This document shows, one piece after another, positions 496 to 10,977 of a stretch of 10,977 nucleotides of DNA. Below the pieces are notes generated by a model. That model was given only the letters and a program-made list of their open reading frames with translations, had not been told where the DNA came from and searched no databases. The DNA is from Bacilli bacterium (lineage in GTDB: Bacteria > Bacillota_I > Bacilli_A > RF39 > UBA660). Made by a program: the position numbers and the translations under genes. The DNA lies in NCBI GenBank assembly GCA_045580645.1, contig JAZNOG010000072.1:1-10977 (forward strand), written 5' to 3'. Each line of letters starts with the position of its first letter. The first letter of the stretch is position 1.

Positions 496-2112
496 TTATC
501 TTGAACGACCTTTACTAGGGTTATCCATTTCAAAAGAATATAATCTTTCAAGTTGCTCTTCGGTAATATCAATTACTCTACCACCTCTAGGATTTATCCT
601 TGTTCCACCAAATACAATCCAAATTGCATCCATAGGTTTTTCAGGCATACTAGCTTCTCCATCAGTAAAAATAATTTTATTCTCTACTCTTCTTGAAAAA
701 GCACCTACAGCAACATCAAAATCTGTACCGCCTCCACCTTGAAATCTCATATTTTCTATATCTTCTTCAGTTCTTATTTCGTGGAAACCATAAAATTCAG
801 TATCAAAGCAACCTACTTTTACTCTTGAATGTTGAAGAATATTTTTACACTCTCTTAAGAAGTTTTTTAATAATACCTCATTAATTGAACCACTTGTATC
901 TAAAACTATTTCAGTTTCTGGCATAGGTTGTTCTTCTAAATTGGCAGATACAACACCATCTTCAATATAAGCATTTCTATAAGACCAATCAACATCATAT
1001 TTAATTGCTTCTCTTAATACATATCGCCAATCTATTAAAGGTTTTGCCCTACCTATATCAGTAACTGTTCTAATATCTCTATTAGTTGTAGTTCCTGCTT
1101 GTGTCGCTTGTTTAGCAATTGCTTCTTTTAATTCCTCTAGTTCTCTCTTTTTTTCCTCTAGATTTTTCTTAAAAGCATCTTTCTCTCCTAAACCTTCGCA
1201 TTCCTCTTGTTTCTTCTCAACTTCAGTTTTATCTTCTTTTTTTTCTGTTTTATCTTTATTAAATAATTTATCGAATAAACTTTCTTTTTTCTTACCTTTA
1301 CTTTGCTCTTCTTTGTGTTTCTTTACAGCATCTTCCCACATACTATGTGTATCGTGTCCAACATCTTCTTTAGTTTCTTCATGTTCATCTTGCTCTCCAG
1401 ATGTTCCACCTGTAGAACTACCTTTTTCTTGTTGTTCGTTTTGTTCAGATGAACTTCCACCACTTTGTCCACCGGTTTGTTCTTTTTGGTCTGGTTGTTC
1501 TTCACCAGAACTTCCACCACCACTTTGACCGTTTTGTTGTTGACTTTCTTGGTTTTGTGAGTTTTGACTTTGACCATTTTGATTTTGTTCATTTTGGTTT
1601 TCTCCACTACCACCTTGTGATTGTTGTTGTTGTTGAGAACTTTGTTGACCACTTTGTTGTTGAGAATTTTGACCCTGTTGTCCATTTTGTTGTTGTGATT
1701 GATTTCCTTGTTGTTGTTTTTTCTCATCTAATAACTTTTCATATAATTGTTCTGCATCATAATTAATTGCTTCTGCAATATCAACACCACCATCAATCAT
1801 TTTTAATCCATCTCTTTTAAGAAAAGCATTTATTACCGCATCAGTCGCAGTATTCCAAATTTGAGGATCTTTACCTTCACTTCTTAAAATATGATTAAAA
1901 GCAATATGACAAACTTCATGAGCAAACACAAATGTCTGTTGTTCAACACTCAAACTTTCTAAAAAATCTGGGTTATAATATATTGTTTTACCATCTGTAC
2001 CAGCAGTTGGTATTCCTTTATTTTCCTTATAATCAACACTTGCTACTACACTACCGAAAAAAGGATATTTAACAAGCATTTTTCTTTTTAAAGCTGCAAT
2101 ATCATATTTCAT
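496..2112 (-). CDS. putative zinc metallopeptidase (HExxH, DUF2201_N-like) fused to a C-terminal VWA-like domain, with a long disordered linker
   Basis: The N-terminal ~125 aa carry FAHEVCHIAFNH (HEVCH encoded at 1906..1920). The C-terminal ~140 aa carry a MIDAS-like VLDTSGS (DTSGS at 886..900), then GGGGTDF and IIFTDGE, the pattern of the VWA-like DUF2201 family that partners MoxR-type ATPases. A GAGGT RBS lies 7 nt upstream of the ATG at 2112. Confidence 0.85.
   Translation of the reverse strand: MKYDIAALKRKMLVKYPFFGSVVASVDYKENKGIPTAGTDGKTIYYNPDFLESLSVEQQTFVFAHEVCHIAFNHILRSEGKDPQIWNTATDAVINAFLKRDGLKMIDGGVDIAEAINYDAEQLYEKLLDEKKQQQGNQSQQQNGQQGQNSQQQSGQQSSQQQQQSQGGSGENQNEQNQNGQSQNSQNQESQQQNGQSGGGSSGEEQPDQKEQTGGQSGGSSSEQNEQQEKGSSTGGTSGEQDEHEETKEDVGHDTHSMWEDAVKKHKEEQSKGKKKESLFDKLFNKDKTEKKEDKTEVEKKQEECEGLGEKDAFKKNLEEKKRELEELKEAIAKQATQAGTTTNRDIRTVTDIGRAKPLIDWRYVLREAIKYDVDWSYRNAYIEDGVVSANLEEQPMPETEIVLDTSGSINEVLLKNFLRECKNILQHSRVKVGCFDTEFYGFHEIRTEEDIENMRFQGGGGTDFDVAVGAFSRRVENKIIFTDGEASMPEKPMDAIWIVFGGTRINPRGGRVIDITEEQLERLYSFEMDNPSKGRSR
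1378..1719 (-). repeat. low-complexity Q/N/S/G-rich coding tract (CAA/CAG/AAT/GGT-rich) inside the 538-aa gene
   Basis: About aa 132-245 read QQQGNQSQQQNGQQGQNSQQQSGQQSS...GGSSSEQNEQQEKGSSTGGTSGEQ. At the DNA level the tract is an imperfect tt-g-tt-g type microrepeat. This explains why three overlapping ORFs appear open there in other frames. Confidence 0.85.
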
Positions 2113-2121
2113 ACTTTAACC

Positions 2122-2514
2122 TCATATTTGAGCTACTAATGAGTAAATTTCTTCGCTTATTTTATCCTTATTAACTTCTTTTGCAGTAACAATTATTACA
2201 CAATCTTTTGGTAATTCAAAAGTAGATATTTTTCTATACTCTAATAATTCAATAAACTTTAATTGTTCTTCTTTATTAATTGAGTCAATTAAATCAATTA
2301 CTAATACTTTAGAATTATTATTAGTAACTAATTCATTATACCATTTAGGTGGCATATAATCTGCACCATCATAATGACCATTTAATTCTTTTGCATCAAC
2401 ATCTGCTGATATTACTATTGCACCAGGAATATCTTTACCAGAAATAAAATTAACTAATATTGGTGCTACATTTGCTTTAATGTAAGACATTAACAATTCT
2501 TTTTTATTTTCCAT
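2122..2514 (-). CDS. small hypothetical protein, possibly a degenerate (Walker-A-less) AAA-like fragment
   Basis: Its ATG (2514..2512) overlaps the TAA of the upstream gene (2516..2514) as TAATG. Its TGA (2124..2122) lies 9 nt before the next ATG. The segment KVLVIDLIDSINKEEQLKFIELLEYRKISTFELPKDCVIIVTA parallels HIVFLDEITNALPSIQGIAFNIVLDREVNGVWKLPENARIVAAG of the neighbouring ATPase, but there is no GK[ST] P-loop and no DE. Confidence 0.7.
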   Translation of the reverse strand: MENKKELLMSYIKANVAPILVNFISGKDIPGAIVISADVDAKELNGHYDGADYMPPKWYNELVTNNNSKVLVIDLIDSINKEEQLKFIELLEYRKISTFELPKDCVIIVTAKEVNKDKISEEIYSLVAQI

Positions 2515-4406
2515 TATCTTCTTATACCTCCTCCTGGCATATTTGCAAGTTTTGCTTCTGCAATTCTTTCTAGTCTTGATTCATCACCATGTATCCATAG
2601 TGCATCAAAAATTGCACCAAACTCTGCACCTAAACCTGTTACAAAACCTCTAACTTTATCAAGATGTTCTTCTTCTACTTGAGATAATCCCATAGTAGTT
2701 GCATATCTTTCTGCAGTATTTAAATTTTGTATATCTCTGTCAGTATAATTTCCATTTATTACATCATCTAATGTAATTACTTGTTGATTACAGAATTGAA
2801 CGAATTCTCTAGTAATATCTTCTCCAACTAATGCTCTTAACATTTCAGGACTACCTGTTGCATAAAGCATTTTTGAAGCCATTTCCCATTTTCTAGGGTC
2901 TGCATTTGGAGTTTCTCCATTATATTCACTTCTTAATGTTTCGCCTTTCTTATATGCGATATAAGAATAAATTGCAGGATGTATATTATGTTCACTTGCC
3001 CATTTCAACCAACTTTCAGTTGTTGTTTTAATATAAACATGAGCAAGTCTATTAAATAATGGTTCTGCTAATTGGTTTGCAGCAAGAGAGTCTTTCATAT
3101 CATTTCCTGCAGCAACTATTCTTGCATTTTCTGGCAATTTCCAAACACCATTTACTTCTCTATCTAAAACTATATTAAATGCTATACCTTGAATACTTGG
3201 TAATGCATTAGTTATTTCATCTAAAAATACAATATGCATTCTATCAGGTTCTTTTTCGCATTTTTCTTCTATCTTCTTTAACCAGCTAGGTTTTACATCA
3301 ATCATCTCTCCAGTTTCAGAATTATATACACTCTTACCATTTAAACTTTCTGGAGTTGCATTACGAAGATAAATTATTACACAATCAGGGTCTATTTGCT
3401 TTACTCTAGCACTTTTACCTTCTGAAGAAGGTCCGTGTAAGAATACTGCTACACCACTTTCAATTGCACCTTTTATAATTTGTTCTTCACTTACTTGTCC
3501 AAACTTTAATCCATAAGGATTTCTTCTCTTTTCAAGTCTCTTTTGTTCTTCTTCGTATTGTTTCTTTTCTTCTGGTGTCATTTCCTTAACAACACTAGGT
3601 ACCATATCTCTAGCAAAATATGTATTCAAATATTGGTACATTTCAGTATTTTTAAAATCACCATTATATTGTCTATCATTACAAAATCTAATTCCAGAAG
3701 CTAACAAAGTTTTGCTAACTAGCATTTTTGCTCTATCATCAACAATCCATTTTATTGGAGATACTTCCAACCACACATACATTCCAGGATGTACTGTAAC
3801 TCCATTAGATAATTTAAAGTTTTCATCAGTATCATTTGATTTTACTCTTACATAGCGTTTTCCATTATATTCAAATTCTTCATGTTGAACAGGACTAAAT
3901 CTTTCTGAATTTGCATTCCATCTTCTAGAATCTGTAGTATATGTTTTTCCAGTTCTTCTCAACACACCTGCTTGGAATGAATCATCAAGAATTCTACCCA
4001 AATTGGTATCAACTGCATATTGTGGATATTCGCCATACTCAACTTCCAAAAATCCGTGTCTTCCCTTCACTCCGTTCAGGGAGATGTCAGAGATGTTTGA
4101 GAACGGTAAAGCTGGGCGAACGGCACCGGAACGCTTACCAGCAGTCGTACAGCTACGATCACCAACTTTGTTGACACCACGAACGTCCCCATCGCCAGCG
4201 GAAGAAGATAAATACCACCAACCAGTTCTACCTCTCATTGAATTATCTCCATCTACATGATAATCACTAGATACATAAGCACCTAATAATATAGCAAAGT
4301 CGGAAATAGCACACTTTCCTCCCATTTTCTTTATAACATCTATCTGTTGACTTCCAAAAGTTTGTTCATCTGAAAGTAAGGTAAATTCATTATTATTAAA
4401 GTTCAT
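2514..4406 (-). CDS. DGR variable (target) protein: N-terminal VR-bearing ligand-binding-like domain fused to a MoxR/AAA_5-type AAA+ ATPase
   Basis: The track ORF starts at a GTG at 4454. The ATG at 4406 (MNFNNNEF...) has a strong GAGGTGG RBS (4418..4412) 5 nt upstream, so 4406 is preferred. The VR (4112..4208) encodes SSSAGDGDVRGVNKVGDRSCTTAGKRSGAVRP inside a ...GWWYLSS...VRPALPF context. The ATPase core has Walker A GPSSEGKS (3411..3434), Walker B IVFLDE (3216..3233), sensor-1-like IVAAGN and an LFNRL motif. No signal peptide or TM segment is apparent. Confidence 0.85.
   Translation of the reverse strand: MNFNNNEFTLLSDEQTFGSQQIDVIKKMGGKCAISDFAILLGAYVSSDYHVDGDNSMRGRTGWWYLSSSAGDGDVRGVNKVGDRSCTTAGKRSGAVRPALPFSNISDISLNGVKGRHGFLEVEYGEYPQYAVDTNLGRILDDSFQAGVLRRTGKTYTTDSRRWNANSERFSPVQHEEFEYNGKRYVRVKSNDTDENFKLSNGVTVHPGMYVWLEVSPIKWIVDDRAKMLVSKTLLASGIRFCNDRQYNGDFKNTEMYQYLNTYFARDMVPSVVKEMTPEEKKQYEEEQKRLEKRRNPYGLKFGQVSEEQIIKGAIESGVAVFLHGPSSEGKSARVKQIDPDCVIIYLRNATPESLNGKSVYNSETGEMIDVKPSWLKKIEEKCEKEPDRMHIVFLDEITNALPSIQGIAFNIVLDREVNGVWKLPENARIVAAGNDMKDSLAANQLAEPLFNRLAHVYIKTTTESWLKWASEHNIHPAIYSYIAYKKGETLRSEYNGETPNADPRKWEMASKMLYATGSPEMLRALVGEDITREFVQFCNQQVITLDDVINGNYTDRDIQNLNTAERYATTMGLSQVEEEHLDKVRGFVTGLGAEFGAIFDALWIHGDESRLERIAEAKLANMPGGGIRR
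4112..4208 (-). repeat. DGR variable repeat (VR)
   Basis: This 97 bp aligns without gaps to 5728..5824 (offset 1616) with 90/97 identity. Mismatches are at 4144, 4149, 4152, 4153, 4165, 4177 and 4198. At six of them TR has T on the plus strand, which is A on the coding minus strand. The VR is in frame inside the 2514..4406 CDS (codons 67-98 from the ATG at 4406, plus the first base of codon 99). Homology may extend 3 nt further to 4109, which would add one more A-site mismatch (4111 versus 5727). Confidence 0.9.
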
Positions 4407-4495
4407 TTTTTCCACCTCTTCTTGCTTATACATATATTTTAACATATTTTCCACGAATTTTATATGATTTTGCTATTTATTTATAAAAATTATTT

Positions 4496-5512
4496 TTATT
4501 GTAAAGGTTTGGTTTTATTTAAAAAACTTAAACTTTCATTAGATTTTTGTACTCTTGAATAAAAAGAATTTTTTCTTATATTTACATATTCTCTATTAAC
4601 AATCCCTTTATTTTCAAGTTTTGATAAAGCTTTTAAATGTTTTTTTATTCTCTTTTTTGATGAACTTCTTAATTTTTTTATAACTTTACCAGTATCAGTT
4701 AATGTTAATCTAAACCCTAAAAAATCTATACCATTTGACACTTTTCCAATTTGAGTTTTGCGATTTAAAGTTAATTTAAGATTATTAACACAAACTTTTT
4801 CTATTTCCTTTAAGCAATATTTTAAATATTCTTTATCTTTATGAATTAATATAAAATCATCCATATATCTTACATATCCCTTAATTTGTAATGTTTCTTT
4901 ACAAAGTCTATCTATTTCATCTAAATATAATAATGCAAACCATTGACTTGATAAATTACCTAATGGAACACCTACAAAAGGATTATCTTTTTCCATAAAG
5001 ATTCTAGCCATATATAACTCATCATCAGACAAACCAATTTTCTTTAATTTGTTTGACAATACTTCAAAATTAATGCTGGGAAAATACTTACTAATATCAC
5101 ATTTTAAATAATAAAATTGATTATTACCATTATTTATGTATTCCCTCTTTAAAAATTTAGTTAATCTATCTAATCCAAAATCTGTCCCCTTAAATTTTTG
5201 ACAAGCAACATTATCATAAATAATATGTTTACTTATTTTTGGTTTTAATACATGGGTACAAAAACACATAAGAACCACTCTATCCTTATATGTTAATGCT
5301 TCAATAAGTCTCTCTTTTGGCTCATACAAAATAAACTTACGATACTTACCGATTTTATATTTTCTTGAATTGATTTGTTTAATAATTTCACTTATATTTT
5401 TTCCTAAATCTAATTCAAATCTTATAACTTCTCCCCTATGTTGTTTTGATTTTCTACATGCTTTATGAGCGGCATATAGATTTTCAAATGTAAATATTTC
5501 ATCTAATTTCAT
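4496..5512 (-). CDS. DGR-type reverse transcriptase
   Basis: RT motifs occur in order: YEPKERLIEALTYKDRVV, DISKYFPSI, VPLGNLSSQWFALLYLDEID (the [I/L]GNxxSQxFA signature typical of DGR RTs), YVRYMDDFILI (YMDD at 4856..4867), LKLTLNRKTQI and IDFLGFRL. The size is 338 aa. An AAGGA RBS lies 7 nt upstream of the ATG at 5512. A TR lies immediately upstream. Confidence 0.92.
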   Translation of the reverse strand: MKLDEIFTFENLYAAHKACRKSKQHRGEVIRFELDLGKNISEIIKQINSRKYKIGKYRKFILYEPKERLIEALTYKDRVVLMCFCTHVLKPKISKHIIYDNVACQKFKGTDFGLDRLTKFLKREYINNGNNQFYYLKCDISKYFPSINFEVLSNKLKKIGLSDDELYMARIFMEKDNPFVGVPLGNLSSQWFALLYLDEIDRLCKETLQIKGYVRYMDDFILIHKDKEYLKYCLKEIEKVCVNNLKLTLNRKTQIGKVSNGIDFLGFRLTLTDTGKVIKKLRSSSKKRIKKHLKALSKLENKGIVNREYVNIRKNSFYSRVQKSNESLSFLNKTKPLQ

Positions 5513-5727
5513 AATTAGTTCCTTTCATAAAAAAATGAACACTTCAATAGTTTTACAAAAATAATATCAATCGTTGCAAAACGTAAGTGTTCGTATTTAT
5601 CTCCCACATTTTAAAATGGTAAGAAAAGAGTAAAATTCCTTCACCTTATGGATTTGATATACTTTACCTAAAATATACTTCACTACCCTGTTTTTTAAAT
5701 TCTTAAAGAATTTCTTCAAAAGTGAAT
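5513..5727 (-). ncRNA. probable spacer (Sp) portion of the DGR RNA between TR and the RT gene
   Basis: This ~215 nt has no ORF and lies directly 3' of TR on the transcribed strand. It contains an 8-bp stem, GAACACUU (5592..5585) with AAGUGUUC (5544..5537), followed by A+U7 and then the RT RBS. The position matches the TR-spacer RNA of characterised DGRs. Confidence 0.45.
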
Positions 5728-5824
5728 CTGGGCGAACGGCACCGGAACGCTTACCAGCATTCGTCCATTTACGATCACCATCTTTGTTGACATCACGAAC
5801 GTCCCCATCGCCATCGGAAGAAGA
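5728..5824 (-). repeat. DGR template repeat (TR)
   Basis: This is the non-coding copy of the 97-bp repeat, lying between the avd-like gene and the RT gene. It has 20 adenines on the minus strand and is ~54% GC in a far more AT-rich background. Read in the VR frame it gives SSSDGDGDVRDVNKDGDRKWTNAGKRSGAVRP. Confidence 0.9.
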
Positions 5825-5878: not shown

Positions 5879-6460
5879 TTAATTTCTGTTTCTCCATCTT
5901 TCGTCATCACTTTTCTTCCAAGCGGCAACTAAATTAATTGCTTCTCCTATTTGTAACGAAATCTGTTTGAATTGTCGCTTTAATATACAATTAGAGTTTT
6001 CAGCGACCATTGATATATATCCAAGCATTTTTAATTTTATAATAGCATCTTTTTGAAATTCTTCTCTTTTCTTTTTATTTTCTACACTATCTATTCTTAT
6101 AAAATTTGCTTGTAATAATAACTCTAATGTTTCTAAACACATATTTTGCATACGATTAACAAATACACCTCTATATTTAGCAGGAGATTTTTCGGTTATT
6201 GCAATAATATATGCTCCTAACTTCTTTACAACAGTAATAACTATTAAATCATTAGAATTAGAAGGTATCTTACTTATTCTTTCTAATTCTTTATCTTCTT
6301 CTACTTGTTGTATTACTTGTTTTTTATTAAACTTTTCATTATTAGCAGTTGCCAAAGCTTGTTTTACTGCTACCTTATCATCAACACTGTTAATACATTC
6401 ATTTACATCATCTATTATTTTTGGTATCTTTAAATTGTTATCTCTACTTACTTGTAACAT
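5879..6460 (-). CDS. avd: Avd-like DGR accessory protein (four-helix-bundle type) with an N-terminal extension
   Basis: It sits immediately upstream of TR. The C-terminal ~125 aa (DLIVITVVKKLGAYIIAITEKSPAKYRGVFVNRMQNMCLETLELLLQAN...LQIGEAINLVAAWKKSDDERWRNRN) resemble Avd / 23S-IVS four-helix-bundle proteins, including the basic C-terminal W-containing tail. The track start at 6469 is a GTG. The ATG at 6460 has a GGGGTG element 6 nt upstream, so it is preferred. Confidence 0.65.
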   Translation of the reverse strand: MLQVSRDNNLKIPKIIDDVNECINSVDDKVAVKQALATANNEKFNKKQVIQQVEEDKELERISKIPSNSNDLIVITVVKKLGAYIIAITEKSPAKYRGVFVNRMQNMCLETLELLLQANFIRIDSVENKKKREEFQKDAIIKLKMLGYISMVAENSNCILKRQFKQISLQIGEAINLVAAWKKSDDERWRNRN

Positions 6461-6487
6461 CAATATCACCCCAACTTTTGGTCTTAT

Positions 6488-6515: not shown

Positions 6516-6731
6516 TTATTTATAGTTTTTTAAATAAGATGAATATTCTCTTAACAATTTAGATATCGTTCTATCGTTAGGTCTTTCTTTTTGTGCCAAT
6601 TCTAAAGCATAACATATTTTTTTTATTTGATACTTTTTTATATTATAGATGTCTAATGTCTGATTAACATTTGAAAAACAAGAACACAATTCTTCTTTAT
6701 TTAAATTTAAATAATTATTATTATCTATCAT
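6516..6731 (-). CDS. small hypothetical protein (71 aa), first gene of the minus-strand string
   Basis: A strong AAGGAGG RBS (6744..6738 region) lies ~7 nt upstream of the ATG at 6731. The product is basic and helical-looking, with no motif I recognise. Confidence 0.6.
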   Translation of the reverse strand: MIDNNNYLNLNKEELCSCFSNVNQTLDIYNIKKYQIKKICYALELAQKERPNDRTISKLLREYSSYLKNYK

Positions 6732-6900: not shown

Positions 6901-7347
6901 ATGAATAAAAATTTAAAAGCATTAAGAGAACACGAAGAATTAACTCAAGAAGAAATTGCTTCTAAGTTAAATATATCTAGACAAAATTATTCTAGATGGG
7001 AAACCAACGAATTATTAATCCCACTTTATCATCTTAATGCATTAGCAAATTTATTTAATACAAGTATGGATTATATTATGGGATTATCTCCCTTAAATAC
7101 TCCTACCAATAATATAAATAATTTAGATTTAACTGAAATTGGTAAAAACATAAAAGAAATACGAGAAGAAAATAACTTATCAATGAGAGAATTAGCCAAA
7201 GTACTTAATACATCTCATTCTACATTATCTTCTTACGAACATGGGAACAATTTAATTATCATAAGTTTTGCTTTTGAAATTGCTTTAAAATATAACATTT
7301 CATTAGACTGGTTATGTAACAGAAGCAATAAAAAATATAGAAAATAA
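6901..7347 (+). CDS. XRE-family transcriptional regulator with two tandem HTH domains
   Basis: There are two HTH_3-like units: LKALREHEELTQEEIASKLNISRQNYSRWETNE...LNALANLFNTSMDYIMG and IGKNIKEIREENNLSMRELAKVLNTSHSTLSSYEHGNN...FEIALKYNISLDWLCN. Confidence 0.85.
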   Translation: MNKNLKALREHEELTQEEIASKLNISRQNYSRWETNELLIPLYHLNALANLFNTSMDYIMGLSPLNTPTNNINNLDLTEIGKNIKEIREENNLSMRELAKVLNTSHSTLSSYEHGNNLIIISFAFEIALKYNISLDWLCNRSNKKYRK

Positions 7348-7353
7348 AATATT

Positions 7354-7389
7354 GGAGAGCCATTTAAAAATTAATGACTCTCCTTTTTT
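7354..7389. terminator. bidirectional terminator between the convergent XRE and hydrolase genes
   Basis: Stem ggagag(cc) at 7354-7361 pairs with (ga)ctctcc at 7376-7383, with one internal mismatch. It is followed by T6 (7384-7389) on the plus strand and by a T-rich run on the minus strand. Confidence 0.55.
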
Positions 7390-8941
7390 AATATTGTGGA
7401 GTTCCATATCCAAAAATAACATTACTACTTAGTGAGTAATCTTTTTGTCTGCAAGTATCATTAGTTGAATTTCCTTCAACTGTATATACTCTTCCATTTT
7501 CTACTTTTTCAACTATTCCTACATGACTAACTGTTCCATCTACTTCCCAATCAAAGAATATAATATCCCCAGATTTAGGTGTATAACTCGATTCTTGCCA
7601 TTGTCCCATTGCTTTAAACCAATTTATACCATTTTGACACCCAGAAAATTTAGGAATAATACCTGCATCTAAATAACCAGATTCATTTGCTACCCAGCTC
7701 ACGAATATAGCACACCATTCTACTCTAGAATTAAAACCATACCAAGACCAGTAAGGTTGCCCACCTACATTACCAACTTGTGATAATGCAATTTGTACCA
7801 TATCAGGACTTCCTACAGGTGTACCAAATATTACTGATGACCACATCATAGAATAGTCATCACTTAATAAATCATTTACTTGTTTTCTTTGCATTGGAGT
7901 GAAGTTATATAAATTCATCATCTCTTCAAGTGATTTACTTGTTATATTAATATATAAAACTTTCTTTGTTAAATTCTCATTTAACTCATTTCCTACTTCA
8001 TATTCAATATCATTTGTTTCTTCTTTTATTTCAAAAGATACATTATTCATATCCCAAAATATTTTCTTTAATTCTGCTTTCTTTGTATCATCTAATGTTA
8101 TTACTTCAGTCTCATTAGTTCCTTTAGATATTTTAGCAGTATATATAGATAATATTTCTTTCCATTCTGCACGATCTGATTCTATTTTAAAATCATCATA
8201 TATATTAGTTTCTTGGATATTAGAAATTTTATCAGACATTTCAGTATTAATCTCTTTAACAACACTACTCATAGTAATTGTTCCAGTATCTTCACTAGAA
8301 AAGAAAATACCAAATATAGAACTACAAAGTAAACCTATTAAACATATAACTATAATCACAATTACTGCTACCCATCCACCAGCAATAATTGCAGAAATCA
8401 ATGCTTTTGTTCCTGCTATAATTGCCTTAACTGCCGAGATAGTTGCCTTAACTGCAACTTTTACACCTTGATATGTTTTTCTAGCAGTTTCTCGTGCTAG
8501 TTTTTGTACTCTTTGAGCATTTTTTATACTTTGCTGTGCAACTTTTTTCGTATTCTTTGCTGTTTTAATAGTAGAGTTCTTTACAACTCTTCCACTTGTT
8601 TTAACTCCTTTAGAAATATTCTTCATATTTCTTTTTTCAGCGAGTTTGCTCTTAATATTTTTAACTTTTATTTTACCTTTTTGTATATTCTGTTTAGTTT
8701 CGATAAAAGCATTTTTACCTTTTTTATTAAGTGGCGATGCACTAACAACTGCAGTTCTCTCTGCATTGTTAATTTTGTTAATTGCATATTCATTAGCATT
8801 AACCTCATTTGATTTATAAGCATTTTCACTTTTAGATTTAATATCAACTAATTTATCTTTTGTCTTTTGAGTAACAATAGTACTTTTATCAAGTGTCTTA
8901 ATTGTCCCCTTAACAACTTCTCTAGTCTTTATATTAGACAT
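7388..8941 (-). CDS. membrane-anchored CHAP/NlpC-P60 peptidoglycan hydrolase of a conjugation apparatus
   Basis: The protein has a Lys-rich N-terminal region and one strong TM segment (ALISAIIAGGWVAVIVIIVICLIGLLCSSIFGIFF). The C-terminal domain carries ...VEWCAIFVSWVANESGY...GDIIFFDW...VSHVGIVEKVENGRVYTVEGNS (CHAP Cys/His pattern). Its ATG lies 2 nt after the VirB4-like stop, with a GGAGA RBS. Confidence 0.85.
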   Translation of the reverse strand: MSNIKTREVVKGTIKTLDKSTIVTQKTKDKLVDIKSKSENAYKSNEVNANEYAINKINNAERTAVVSASPLNKKGKNAFIETKQNIQKGKIKVKNIKSKLAEKRNMKNISKGVKTSGRVVKNSTIKTAKNTKKVAQQSIKNAQRVQKLARETARKTYQGVKVAVKATISAVKAIIAGTKALISAIIAGGWVAVIVIIVICLIGLLCSSIFGIFFSSEDTGTITMSSVVKEINTEMSDKISNIQETNIYDDFKIESDRAEWKEILSIYTAKISKGTNETEVITLDDTKKAELKKIFWDMNNVSFEIKEETNDIEYEVGNELNENLTKKVLYINITSKSLEEMMNLYNFTPMQRKQVNDLLSDDYSMMWSSVIFGTPVGSPDMVQIALSQVGNVGGQPYWSWYGFNSRVEWCAIFVSWVANESGYLDAGIIPKFSGCQNGINWFKAMGQWQESSYTPKSGDIIFFDWEVDGTVSHVGIVEKVENGRVYTVEGNSTNDTCRQKDYSLSSNVIFGYGTPQY

Positions 8942-8943
8942 AA

Positions 8944-10977
8944 TTATTCTCCAGGTTTAGTTGTCATAAGTTTATATAATTTAGTATTTTTAGGAAATCT
9001 ATTAACAAAAGGTACAAGTGAACTACCATATTTAATTAAACCACATCCTGCTTCTGCATTTGTTATATAAGACATTTGCTCATCTGATATATTCAATAAT
9101 CTTCCTAACTCTTGTCTATCACTTGCAGCTTGATTAAGCATTACAATAAACTCACTATTTGATAACATTGTTGAAGCATCTACTGACGATAAAAGGTATT
9201 CCACATTTTGAGTTATTGCAGTTGGATATGCATTTCTCTTTCTGAACTGTCTCCAAGCACTATTAAAGAATGTTGCACTATATTCATTTTCAAATAATAC
9301 ATGAATTTCATCTATAAAAATATGTGTTCTTTTACCTTTTTTATAATTATCTGATACTCTATTTAACATTGCATCAGTAATAACTAATAACCCCATTGTT
9401 TTAAGTTGTTTTCCTAGTTTATAAATATCATAAGATATAATTCTACTATTAGTATCTACATTAGTTTCGTGTGAGAAAACATTTAAAGAACCATTAGTAA
9501 ATAACTCTAATGATAAAGCAAGTTCACTCGCTTCTTTTTCTGGTTGCTTTAATAACATATTTCTTAAATCAACTAATGTTGGTATTTTACCATTTTTATG
9601 ATATTCATCATATACAAGTGCAGTACATCTATCTATAATAGATTTTTCTTTTGGTCCTAATCCTTTTTTATCTAATTGTTCAAATAAAGATAAAATAAAC
9701 TCTGATTTATCAACAACAGGATTGGCACCATCTCCATATCCTTCTGTCATATCCATTGCATTTATATGGTCTTTACTACTTGCTGATATACTAATTACTT
9801 CTCCACCAAGAGCAGAAACTAATGCAGAATATTCACCCTCTGGATCACATATTAAAATATCATCTTCTGTTGATAATGCTAAAAACACAATTAACTCTTT
9901 CGCACTAAATGATTTACCACTACCAGGTACTCCCAATAAAAAAGATGATTGATTTAATAAGTTTGCTTTATTAACCATTATTAAATTATGACTTATAGCA
10001 TTTTCGCCATAATAAATACCACCCTTATCTTGTATTTCTTGAACTCTAAAAGGATGTAATACACCAAGACCTTCAGTAGTTAAAGTTCTTAATATATCAA
10101 CATCTCTAGCTCCAAATGGTAAAGCAGTACTCAATCCAGGATGTTGTTGATACCTCAAAGGTACTATTTGACATAAATGTTTTCTAGCAGTTATTAACAC
10201 ACTTTCAGTATCTGCATCAAGTTTTTCCTTTGTATCTGCTACTATTACAAGTGTTAGATTAGCAAACATCATTCTTTGGTCACGAGTTGTTAAATCATCT
10301 AAAAACTCTTTGCTTTCTTTTCTTTGTTGTTCTAAATCATACGGAACCATAGCAGAATAATTATTATTAGCATTTTGTTTTCTTTGCCATTGTGTAATAT
10401 TTGTTTCTACACCTAATAATCTATTTTCCACCTCTTTAACTGCTTCATCTGTTGGTACTGGTATTACATCAATACTTAACATCATATTGTTATTCATATC
10501 AGTAAGTTCTGCAATAAACGAATCTTTTATAAAACTAGCATATTCTTTTAAAAACAAAACTCTACCAAACTTATCTCCCATTTCAAAATAATCATTTTGA
10601 AAAGACATACCATTAGGACATATATAATCTTTAAAATTATGTCCTTTTTTCATAAGTGTAGATAAATCTAAATTATAATTAACTTCTTCGCCTATTCTAT
10701 AAAAATCGTGAAATACTCTTAATTTTTCTACTGCATTTAATTCAATACATTTACTACCTAACTTTGCAAGATGTGACGATATGTCAGTATATATTCTTCT
10801 AAAATAATTCTTCGCTTCTTCATAATTTTTCTTAAAAACAGATACTGTTAAATATATTTCTCTAACCATACCATTACTACCTATTGCTTTATCTAAAAGC
10901 ATTTGATTATATTCTTCTCTATAAATATCTAATCCATCATCTTTAAATGGTAATAATATTTCTTTTTCAAAATCTTT
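8944..10977 (-). CDS. VirB4-like conjugal transfer ATPase (Gram-positive TcpF / Tn916-Orf16 / CD1110 type), N-terminus outside window
   Basis: Walker A LLGVPGSGKS is encoded at ~9910..9933 and a Walker B-like THIFIDEIH is present. The frame stays open from the track ATG at 10902 up to base 10977 (25 more codons, no stop). Relatives of this family are larger than 652 aa, so the start is probably beyond the window. Confidence 0.88.
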   Translation of the reverse strand, partial: KDFEKEILLPFKDDGLDIYREEYNQMLLDKAIGSNGMVREIYLTVSVFKKNYEEAKNYFRRIYTDISSHLAKLGSKCIELNAVEKLRVFHDFYRIGEEVNYNLDLSTLMKKGHNFKDYICPNGMSFQNDYFEMGDKFGRVLFLKEYASFIKDSFIAELTDMNNNMMLSIDVIPVPTDEAVKEVENRLLGVETNITQWQRKQNANNNYSAMVPYDLEQQRKESKEFLDDLTTRDQRMMFANLTLVIVADTKEKLDADTESVLITARKHLCQIVPLRYQQHPGLSTALPFGARDVDILRTLTTEGLGVLHPFRVQEIQDKGGIYYGENAISHNLIMVNKANLLNQSSFLLGVPGSGKSFSAKELIVFLALSTEDDILICDPEGEYSALVSALGGEVISISASSKDHINAMDMTEGYGDGANPVVDKSEFILSLFEQLDKKGLGPKEKSIIDRCTALVYDEYHKNGKIPTLVDLRNMLLKQPEKEASELALSLELFTNGSLNVFSHETNVDTNSRIISYDIYKLGKQLKTMGLLVITDAMLNRVSDNYKKGKRTHIFIDEIHVLFENEYSATFFNSAWRQFRKRNAYPTAITQNVEYLLSSVDASTMLSNSEFIVMLNQAASDRQELGRLLNISDEQMSYITNAEAGCGLIKYGSSLVPFVNRFPKNTKLYKLMTTKPGE

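Follow-up and report, generated by a model that had tools for sequence, protein, structure and literature searches.

The 10,977-nt stretch of DNA analyzed here (the window; positions 1–10,977 of contig JAZNOG010000072.1 from a Bacilli bacterium, assembly GCA_045580645.1) carries what we take, with a probability of roughly 85%, to be a complete diversity-generating retroelement (DGR) that was recently active in its lineage and that rewrites a patch of 32 codons near the beginning of a MoxR-type ATPase gene. We are more confident still of the retroelement part of this explanation, and its functional part, in which the variable domain of the target protein would act as a ligand-recognition module steering an ATPase/peptidase machine, is offered tentatively, at somewhat less than even odds. 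To our knowledge, DGRs are the only targeted protein hypermutation system of prokaryotes, and nearly all of the DGR targets that we know to have been described are surface or virion proteins with a lectin-fold variable repeat (VR) at the C-terminus. The mechanism of the present cassette is ordinary for a DGR, and the architecture of its target is unusual and undescribed: an N-terminal VR lies in a domain of no recognizable lectin fold, the domain is fused directly to a MoxR ATPase, and the carrier of the whole is a conjugative element found in unicellular bacteria of the gut.

The core of the evidence is a pair of repeats. A repeat finder returned a single long direct repeat in the window (103 nt, 91% identity), and its two copies are the template repeat (TR) and the VR (Table 1). 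Within the 97-nt core (4112–4208 against 5728–5824), recounting gave the same gapless alignment and the same 90 identities as the original prediction, with exactly seven mismatches at positions 4144, 4149, 4152, 4153, 4165, 4177, and 4198 of the VR side. Six of the seven fall on template adenines, as had been claimed, in that the TR copy has T on the plus strand and hence A on the minus strand, which is both transcribed and coding; the remaining mismatch (4149/5765) is G in the TR and T in the VR. The hypergeometric probability of placing at least six of seven mismatches on the 20 adenines of the TR core is 2.4e-4, and a degenerate version of the TR in which every A may be any base matched two sites in the window, both of them the known copies, where none was expected. 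The two copies had also been described as islands of about 54% G+C in AT-rich DNA; the measured values are 56% for the VR and 52% for the TR, against 28.7% for the window.

The adenine-linked differences alter five codons from TR to VR, namely D70A (GAT>GCT), D77G (GAT>GGT), D81V (GAT>GTT), K85S (AAA>AGC), and N88T (AAT>ACT), all as first listed, and the non-adenine site gives W86C (TGG>TGT). In the accompanying list of substituted bases, a single pair had been exchanged: TR positions 5768 and 5769 give C and G, respectively, not G and C, and the rest of the list is correct. The counts of 20 template adenines with six changed, and the theoretical 4^20 (1.1e12) nucleotide variants, were likewise reproduced; the corresponding number of protein variants is ~1.9e10, and approximately 15% of fully randomized VRs would contain a stop codon because the TR holds two AAA codons and one AAG codon. 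Immediately beyond the core, the TR and VR differ by a further A-to-C change (5727/4111; codon 99, GAT in the TR and GCT in the VR, Asp to Ala) that is fixed in every related lineage. Since this difference is the same in all lineages, it is a mark of the 3′ boundary and not a product of mutagenesis, and by analogy it is what would be expected of a pair of initiation of mutagenic homing sites (IMH and IMH*). The homology between TR and VR stops at the GC-rich 3′ end in all lineages, and this end of the VR is our candidate, again by analogy with known DGRs, for the functional IMH.

Comparison among related genomes, which the original prediction had put forward as a check, agrees with adenine-directed diversification: the TR is identical, the VRs differ, and the hypervariable columns are the adenine-bearing codons. 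Homologues of the target number in the thousands in public assemblies. In an alignment of the 40 closest proteins (93–99% identical), entropy peaks at codons 70, 72, 74, 77, 79, 80, 81, 83, 85, and 88, precisely the set of TR codons with an adenine. The TR is identical over 100/100 nt between the window and the near-identical elements L037–L042, which come from independent assemblies, and over 103/103 nt in L124/L125; the window and L037–L042 together hold three versions of the VR that differ from the TR at adenines, the exception to the adenine rule being one G-to-T change each in the window VR and the L037 VR. Among targets that are 97–99% identical, all 19 of the 19 VRs are distinct, 98 amino acid differences separate them from the peptide that the TR encodes, 92 of these in codons with an adenine, and pairwise per-site divergence is 35 times higher within the VR than outside it. 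Related lineages with the same arrangement (RT 48–60% and target 33–53% identical, RT being the reverse transcriptase) supplied 14 distinct TR/VR pairs, in which 146 of 154 mismatches fall at TR adenines; the fraction of adenine in the TR is 0.29. The binomial probability of this count (~1e-66) is overstated, because neither the lineages nor the sites are independent and the score used in finding the pairs favored adenine mismatches.

Two further features of the repeats are recorded here. Trp86 (window position 4149, TGG in the TR) undergoes a recurrent non-adenine change, being altered to C, G, and C in three of the 19 close VRs; codon 86 lies between AAA (codon 85) and ACG (codon 87), and it is at codon 87 that L037 has its G-to-T change, such that the region of codons 86–87 may be a local hot spot of non-adenine errors by the RT. 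In addition, the TRs of four relatives (L001 9715–9788, L002 7012–7088, L009 9709–9784, and L111 1435–1505) contain an in-frame TAA or TGA, and a faithful copy of any of them would therefore truncate the target. In L002 and L009, the VR still has the stop codon and the target open reading frame (ORF) ends inside the VR; the window TR has no stop codon. Stop-bearing templates could constitute an on/off switch, or they may simply be a cost of codon usage.

The genes around the repeats are those of a DGR. On the minus strand, a 71-aa ORF is followed by an Avd-like gene, the TR, a 212-nt spacer, the RT gene, 89 nt, the target gene, a 130-aa gene, and a 538-aa gene (Table 1). The claim of a complete DGR stands, since all of the parts named in it are present and intact and the VRs of relatives agree with it: the non-coding repeat does lie between the stop codon of the Avd-like gene and the start codon of an RT with the SQ signature, and the other copy is in frame downstream, as codons 67–100 of a 630-aa ORF. 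The RT matches Pfam RVT_1 (E = 8.9e-14) and PHROG 1423 (E = 3.6e-92). Its best sequence match in the PDB is the 328-aa ‘Reverse transcriptase’ chain 8ub7_A (E = 2.7e-37), one of the 8ub7 series of entries, which we take to be complexes of the Bordetella phage enzyme bRT, whereas other RT classes in the PDB, group II included, reach E-values of 1e-8 to 1e-12. In tblastn searches, its relatives in phages include enzymes of Bordetella and Faecalibacterium phages and that of nd12, a phage whose DGR has been published. For the Avd-like protein, PHROG gives family 3206, ‘Avd protein of DGR’ (E = 4.2e-13), and matches to NCBIfam DivGenRetAVD (E = 3e-5) and Pfam bAvd (E = 3e-4) stay below the curated cut-offs of both models; no sequence match to it was found in the PDB. 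Its gene adjoins the RT gene in relatives as well (59–82% identity). The N-terminus of the protein is ~70 residues longer than the Avd profiles, which match residues 77–187, and relatives keep this extension.

Table 1. Features of the DGR cassette, its partner genes, and its carrier (nucleotide positions in the window)
Feature	Position	Strand	Description
Template repeat (TR)	5722..5824	-	Non-coding; 20 adenines in the 5728-5824 core
Variable repeat (VR)	4106..4208	-	Target codons 67-100; positions actually varying are codons 70-88 (4143-4199)
GC-rich 3′ end of VR, candidate IMH	4112..4127	-	GGTGCCGTTCGCCCAG, encodes GAVRPA; fixed difference at 4111 comes after
Structured spacer RNA	5513..5727	-	Between TR and RT; covariation
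DGR reverse transcriptase	4496..5512	-	338 aa; motif 4 LGNLSSQ (PLGNLSSQWFA), catalytic YMDD
Avd-like accessory gene	5879..6469	-	196 aa from GTG start; 193 aa in gene callers
Target gene	2514..4406	-	630 aa; variable domain (aa 1-270), linker, MoxR-type AAA+ ATPase, helical C-terminal part
130-aa gene	2122..2514	-	Start codon overlaps target stop by one base (2514)
Metallopeptidase-like (HExxH) + vWA-like gene	496..2112	-	538 aa
ORF upstream of Avd-like gene	6516..6731	-	71 aa; conserved in close relatives, 53% in L047
Divergent regulator	6901..7347	+	Two HTH_3 (XRE-type) domains; Pfam HTH_3 E = 1.6e-26, two stretches
Conjugation genes of carrier	7388..10902	-	VirB4-like ATPase (8944-10902); CHAP-domain, CD1108-like hydrolase (7388-8941)

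The spacer between the TR and the RT gene is itself conserved. Its length is 201–221 nt in nine of ten divergent lineages (253 nt in L010), its sequence is strongly conserved, and RNAalifold predicts 48 consensus base pairs, 26 of them with compensatory changes. Across the alignment, 95.2% of cells are paired, against 41–56% when the partners are slid, and 26 pairs show double changes, against 6–10 in the slid controls; none of 500 shuffles reached the observed values. The outermost, long-range helix joins an eight-base stretch at the 3′ edge of the TR (5726–5719) to 5647–5640 and undergoes a CA/UG to UG/CA switch in three lineages. Its layout resembles the TR-spacer architecture that is required for priming in the Bordetella DGR. 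Hairpins are formed at 5678–5657 and 5624–5600, and a further helix (5592–5585/5544–5537), in which seven of eight pairs are compensatory, precedes a U-run just ahead of the RT ribosome-binding site; a simple terminator scan did not call this helix and U-run. Rfam recognized no known RNA family in the spacer, and no intron or retron RNA family either.

The target gene begins with an ATG at 4406 that is preceded by AGAGGTGGA, and its homologues are likewise called at 630 aa. The 97-nt core of the VR corresponds to residues 67–98 (32 codons), near the N-terminus. C-terminal VRs are near-universal among DGRs (Roux 2021, PMC8144416), and in an earlier survey three of 372 DGRs diversified their targets at the N-terminus (Wu 2018, PMC5758913). 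The ATPase half of the target contains Walker A (GPSSEGKS at residue 325) and Walker B (FLDE) motifs, its tblastn matches are annotated ‘MoxR family ATPase’, and Foldseek places a model of the full-length protein beside NorQ, CbbQ, and RavA of the MoxR class at ~1e-7. The protein also matches PHROG 1297 (E = 1.7e-47); its sequence found no match in the PDB. No signal peptide or hydrophobic segment was seen on reading the sequence by eye, and the target is thus a predicted cytoplasmic ATPase. An AlphaFold2 model of the first 270 residues is a single unit (pLDDT 91.5, pTM 0.91) in which the variable codons occupy strands 64–71, 74–78, and 84–88 and the loop between the last two, in other words a β-hairpin region. 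A surface β-hairpin is also what the VRs of DUF6273-type targets form (PMC10743442). A Foldseek search with this model returned nothing significant (best E = 0.12 in the PDB and 0.033 in BFVD), which leaves the domain without an assignable fold, lectin or other. A circular permutation of DUF6273 suggested itself, with residues 238–287 of the window protein aligning to profile positions 20–68 and residues 45–101 of relatives to 120–168; the E-values of these alignments are too weak to claim it.

The target is accompanied by two partner genes, and the three are syntenic in almost all related loci. The 538-aa protein combines a metallopeptidase-like domain with a vWA-like domain, as indicated by matches to Pfam DUF2201_N (E = 1.9e-38) and DUF2201 (E = 1.5e-14), to PHROG 1314 (E = 4e-70), and, weakly, to the minimal metallopeptidase MJ1213. 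Its two domains are separated by an acidic, low-complexity linker of ~200 aa that is rich in Q, S, G, and E (window ~1100–1750), and the linker DNA is imperfectly repetitive (repeat families D1, D3, and D4). For the 130-aa protein, Pfam, NCBIfam, and PADLOC gave nothing, and PHROG gave one weak match to a family of unknown function (E = 5e-4); the idea that it is a degenerate half of an AAA+ domain was dropped (BLASTP against the target, E = 1.1).

As to the carrier, the VirB4-like ATPase matches NCBIfam conju_CD1110 with E = 4.9e-270 and 898 bits against a cut-off of 325, and the cell-wall hydrolase next to it matches CHAP (E = 4e-16). The VirB4-like gene of the window is truncated at its N-terminus relative to the 771-aa gene of the near-identical locus L037, and this locus adds TrbL_2, PrgI, SSB, XRE-type regulators, a sigma-like factor, a PemK toxin, and two large serine recombinases. 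From the conjugation genes upstream of the cassette in the window and those in its neighborhood in L037, we conclude that it is cargo of a conjugative element of the Firmicutes type. Hosts of the family are uncultured gut Bacilli, ‘Tenericutes’, and Clostridia, represented by metagenome-assembled genomes (MAGs). The 71-aa ORF has no family match in Pfam or NCBIfam, a promoter scan performed no better than on shuffled sequences, and megablast of the whole window against phage and plasmid collections gave no match; the 71-aa ORF or the divergent XRE-type regulator could belong to the control of the cassette.

In the mechanism that we propose, the minus strand would be transcribed through the Avd-like gene, the TR, and the conserved structured spacer, and the RT together with Avd would copy the TR RNA into cDNA while misincorporating opposite template adenines. 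The cDNA would then replace the VR ~1.6 kb downstream, with the shared GC-rich 3′ end GGTGCCGTTCGCCCAG probably setting the boundary. This retrohoming scheme is that of established DGR biology and agrees with all of the features tested, and the evidence shows directly the parts themselves, their adenine specificity, a constant TR beside VRs that vary between samples, and the conserved RNA structure; what the target does is, by contrast, inferred. The variable domain so altered would choose the protein that the ATPase engages in conjunction with its metallopeptidase-vWA and 130-aa partners, and the most likely role of the whole would be that of a retargetable sensor or substrate selector, used by the conjugative element against phages, other mobile elements, or host defenses. 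A hypervariable, solvent-exposed hairpin on a ring-forming MoxR ATPase domain, encoded beside a vWA-metallopeptidase, suggests such a recognition module.

Set against the DGR of Bordetella phage BPP-1 (Avd, TR, bRT, and Mtd) and the canonical family that it represents, the cassette has the same Avd-like gene and non-coding TR by an SQ-motif RT and the same adenine-specific differences; in both, moreover, the 3′ end common to TR and VR is GC-rich and marked by a constant difference between the two, and a structured RNA follows the TR. It departs from them in its gene order (avd-TR-RT-target), in a VR at residues 67–98 of 630 instead of the C-terminus, in a target predicted to be cytoplasmic and equipped with an AAA+ ATPase, in being carried by a conjugative element and not a phage, and in showing no predicted hairpin after the VR. 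Moreover, its TR uses GAT, AAA, and AAG codons, so that stop codons are possible, unlike in the canonical systems. Closer in some respects are the tentaclin DGRs of phages nd4 and nd12 and the DUF6273-type targets of Faecalibacterium phages (PMC10743442, PMC11792537), in which the variable domain is N-terminal in the target as well. The RT of nd12 is 43% identical to the RT described here and is followed by its target in the same order, a VR motif of the type WW..S...VR.V..G....VRP.L is common to both targets, and hhalign superposes the two VRs. The nd12 VR lies at residues ~225–259, however, and tentaclins are Ig-like-domain proteins of the phage tail, whereas the domain described here is fused to a MoxR ATPase. 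Direct homology between the N-terminal domain and the nd12 tentaclin was considered and is not significant (BLASTP E = 0.029, hhalign probability 2%).

For the proposed role, the nearest precedents are the MoxR-vWA ternary conflict systems of multicellular bacteria, in which DGR-diversified lectin domains have been proposed to be sensors of invaders (Kaur et al. 2020, PMC7159879; Dore et al. 2024, PMC10907252). These systems, too, couple a DGR-diversified binding domain to a MoxR ATPase, and they include a vWA protein, a peptidase-type domain, and a target predicted to be cytoplasmic. Their variable domain is of the C-type-lectin/FGS kind and C-terminal, and either the vWA protein or a separate target carries it, in contrast to the N-terminal domain on the MoxR ATPase here; their third component (VMAP, iSTAND, FtsH, or β-propeller) is not present here, where the third gene is the 130-aa gene; and the peptidase here, unlike theirs, is a DUF2201_N domain with HExxH that forms one protein with the vWA part. 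Their hosts are multicellular cyanobacteria and purple sulfur bacteria, as opposed to MAGs of gut Bacilli, ‘Tenericutes’, and Clostridia, with a conjugative element as carrier. Thus, the locus resembles the ternary systems in its working and is no member of them, and the parallel, being one of analogy, would lend support to the role proposed above. DGRs as cargo of conjugative elements also have precedents, in the LdtA DGR of Legionella on an integrative and conjugative element and, according to the abstract of a preprint, in the type V pilus DGRs of Bacteroides (bioRxiv 10.1101/2024.11.15.621889). The Legionella and Bacteroides targets are surface lipoproteins or pilus adhesins with a C-terminal VR, in contrast to an ATPase that has no export signal. 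Finally, phages and plasmids carry MoxR-like ATPases, homologous to the ATPase half of the target at 25–30% identity and followed by a DUF2201 metallopeptidase or vWA-like gene; these ATPases differ in having neither the 300-aa N-terminal variable domain nor a DGR, and no record in the phage and plasmid collections covers at least 80% of the target. Such bare pairs include L127 (Erwinia phage Pastis 4077–6274, N4-like, early genes) and L128 (Thermus oshimai plasmid pTHEOS01). Our literature search found no paper on this architecture and none that joins a DGR to DUF2201, and those that join a DGR to MoxR describe other arrangements; similar loci may nonetheless be present, without comment, in the large catalogues of DGRs.

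Several observations weigh against the explanation favored here, some against its retroelement part and others against its functional part. With respect to the retroelement, ~6% of the changes are off adenines, the recurrent change of Trp86 among them; the pair-finding score was lenient toward mismatches at TR adenines, which biases the ends of the repeats and not the counts inside the core; and no hairpin or cruciform is predicted after the VR, where 111 nt over its 3′ end and the following sequence gave z = 0.40 against shuffles. The evidence of diversification is drawn from comparisons between samples and concerns the lineage rather than the present state of the cell line sampled. Nine contigs, drawn from several samples, share one and the same VR version (P0010), from which it follows that turnover is not fast relative to spread. 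Furthermore, most target homologues are without an intact DGR: among 44 metagenomic loci in which a target homologue is preceded by 2.3 kb or more of sequence, three have a complete DGR, one has an RT without Avd or TR, 15 have RT fragments only, and 25 have no RT. These last points, along with the modest number of adenines changed in the window (6/20), are what would be seen if the cassette were a fossil, active in an ancestor and now silent, with its six adenine substitutions as an inherited snapshot. Every stage of decay can be found in relatives: in L123, three tyrosine recombinases have shortened the RT to residues 184–338 and removed the TR and Avd, Avd has been replaced by another gene in L124/L125, where the TR persists, and L043–L045 have no cassette and an identical VR in all three contigs. 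We nevertheless consider a fossil quite improbable for the window, whose Avd-like gene, TR, spacer RNA, RT, and VR are all intact and 98–100% identical to those of L037–L042, since the VRs of L037–L042 differ from that of the window and from each other over an identical TR, and all 19 close relatives differ in their VRs. An ordinary duplication or gene-conversion tract with a chance adenine bias and an unrelated RT, from a group II intron, a retron, or a defense system, can hardly be credited. The best NCBIfam match of the RT is indeed a group II intron model, and many PADLOC DRT models match as well, all of them below family cut-offs; the similarity of the RT to the 8ub7 enzyme and to the RTs of phage DGRs is, however, far greater than that to group II or retron enzymes, and Rfam found none of the RNAs that an intron or retron would bring. 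The adenine bias, for its part, is improbable by chance in the window alone and recurs family-wide (146/154), and in every lineage one copy of the repeat is non-coding and lies between Avd and the RT.

With respect to function, the observations on the other side of the balance are that PADLOC assigned none of the three module proteins (target, 130-aa, and vWA) to a defense system; that Foldseek gave the N-terminal domain model no match to a C-type lectin, Mtd, or TvpA; that the only link of this domain to a named family is a weak similarity over the VR segment to DUF6273 and Fib_succ_major; and that the bare ATPase-metallopeptidase pair occurs on an N4-like phage and a Thermus plasmid, and its basic role therefore need not be defense. 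The same DGR might instead serve counter-defense or offense, in which case the variable domain would select the substrates of a machine with which the element, on entering a new host, remodels or degrades variable host defense proteins, and would not be a sensor that triggers defense. The occurrence of homologous pairs on plasmids and in the early region of phage Pastis, the strong matches to PHROG 1297 and 1314, the position of the module in the cargo slot of a conjugative element, and the PADLOC result would all suit such a role, which we think unlikely and by no means negligible; the published precedents read DGR-linked MoxR-vWA systems as sensors (PMC7159879, PMC10907252). A bolder form of the sensor or selector role is that the locus is a DGR-programmable intracellular recognition device, in which a hypervariable domain of undescribed fold is wired to a MoxR motor and a vWA-metallopeptidase and lets the conjugative element redirect one ATP-driven remodeling or proteolysis machine as phage, plasmid, or host-defense proteins change. 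We regard this form as doubtful, a little less so than a counter-defense role and more so than a recognition module in general. Were it true, a single operon would hold an ‘antibody-plus-effector’, and DGR-based antigen sensing would extend beyond multicellular bacteria and C-terminal lectin folds. If the variable domain does select the ligand of the machine, the locus would provide a compact and portable form of adaptive-like recognition inside the cell.

Apart from its function, the family is informative about the life of DGRs. The DGR is often lost after acquisition, beside a target module that is conserved, and the family shows clearly how often this happens. The DGR-less loci L043–L045, whose VR does not vary, are possible natural controls; an ORF upstream of the target in these loci is, on inspection by eye, a putative transketolase. 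The well-supported structure of the spacer provides a DGR RNA that should be useful for work on priming.

The N-terminal domain is itself widespread, with 1,799 cluster representatives at E ≤ 1e-3, and the target family could serve as a new scaffold for engineered diversification. Many of its members are stand-alone proteins of 270–340 aa, and others are fused to an ATPase, ankyrin, LRR, or DUF4116 domains. Among the more elaborate architectures, P0077 (913 aa) has an extra Fib_succ_major-like domain ahead of the N-terminal domain and ATPase, and P0241 (818 aa) has two tandem N-terminal domains, across which it matches DUF6273 weakly, along with DUF4116 repeats. In a Rickettsiales MAG (L014 6067–6963), a stand-alone member of 298 aa is the target of a DGR and is encoded upstream of its RT.

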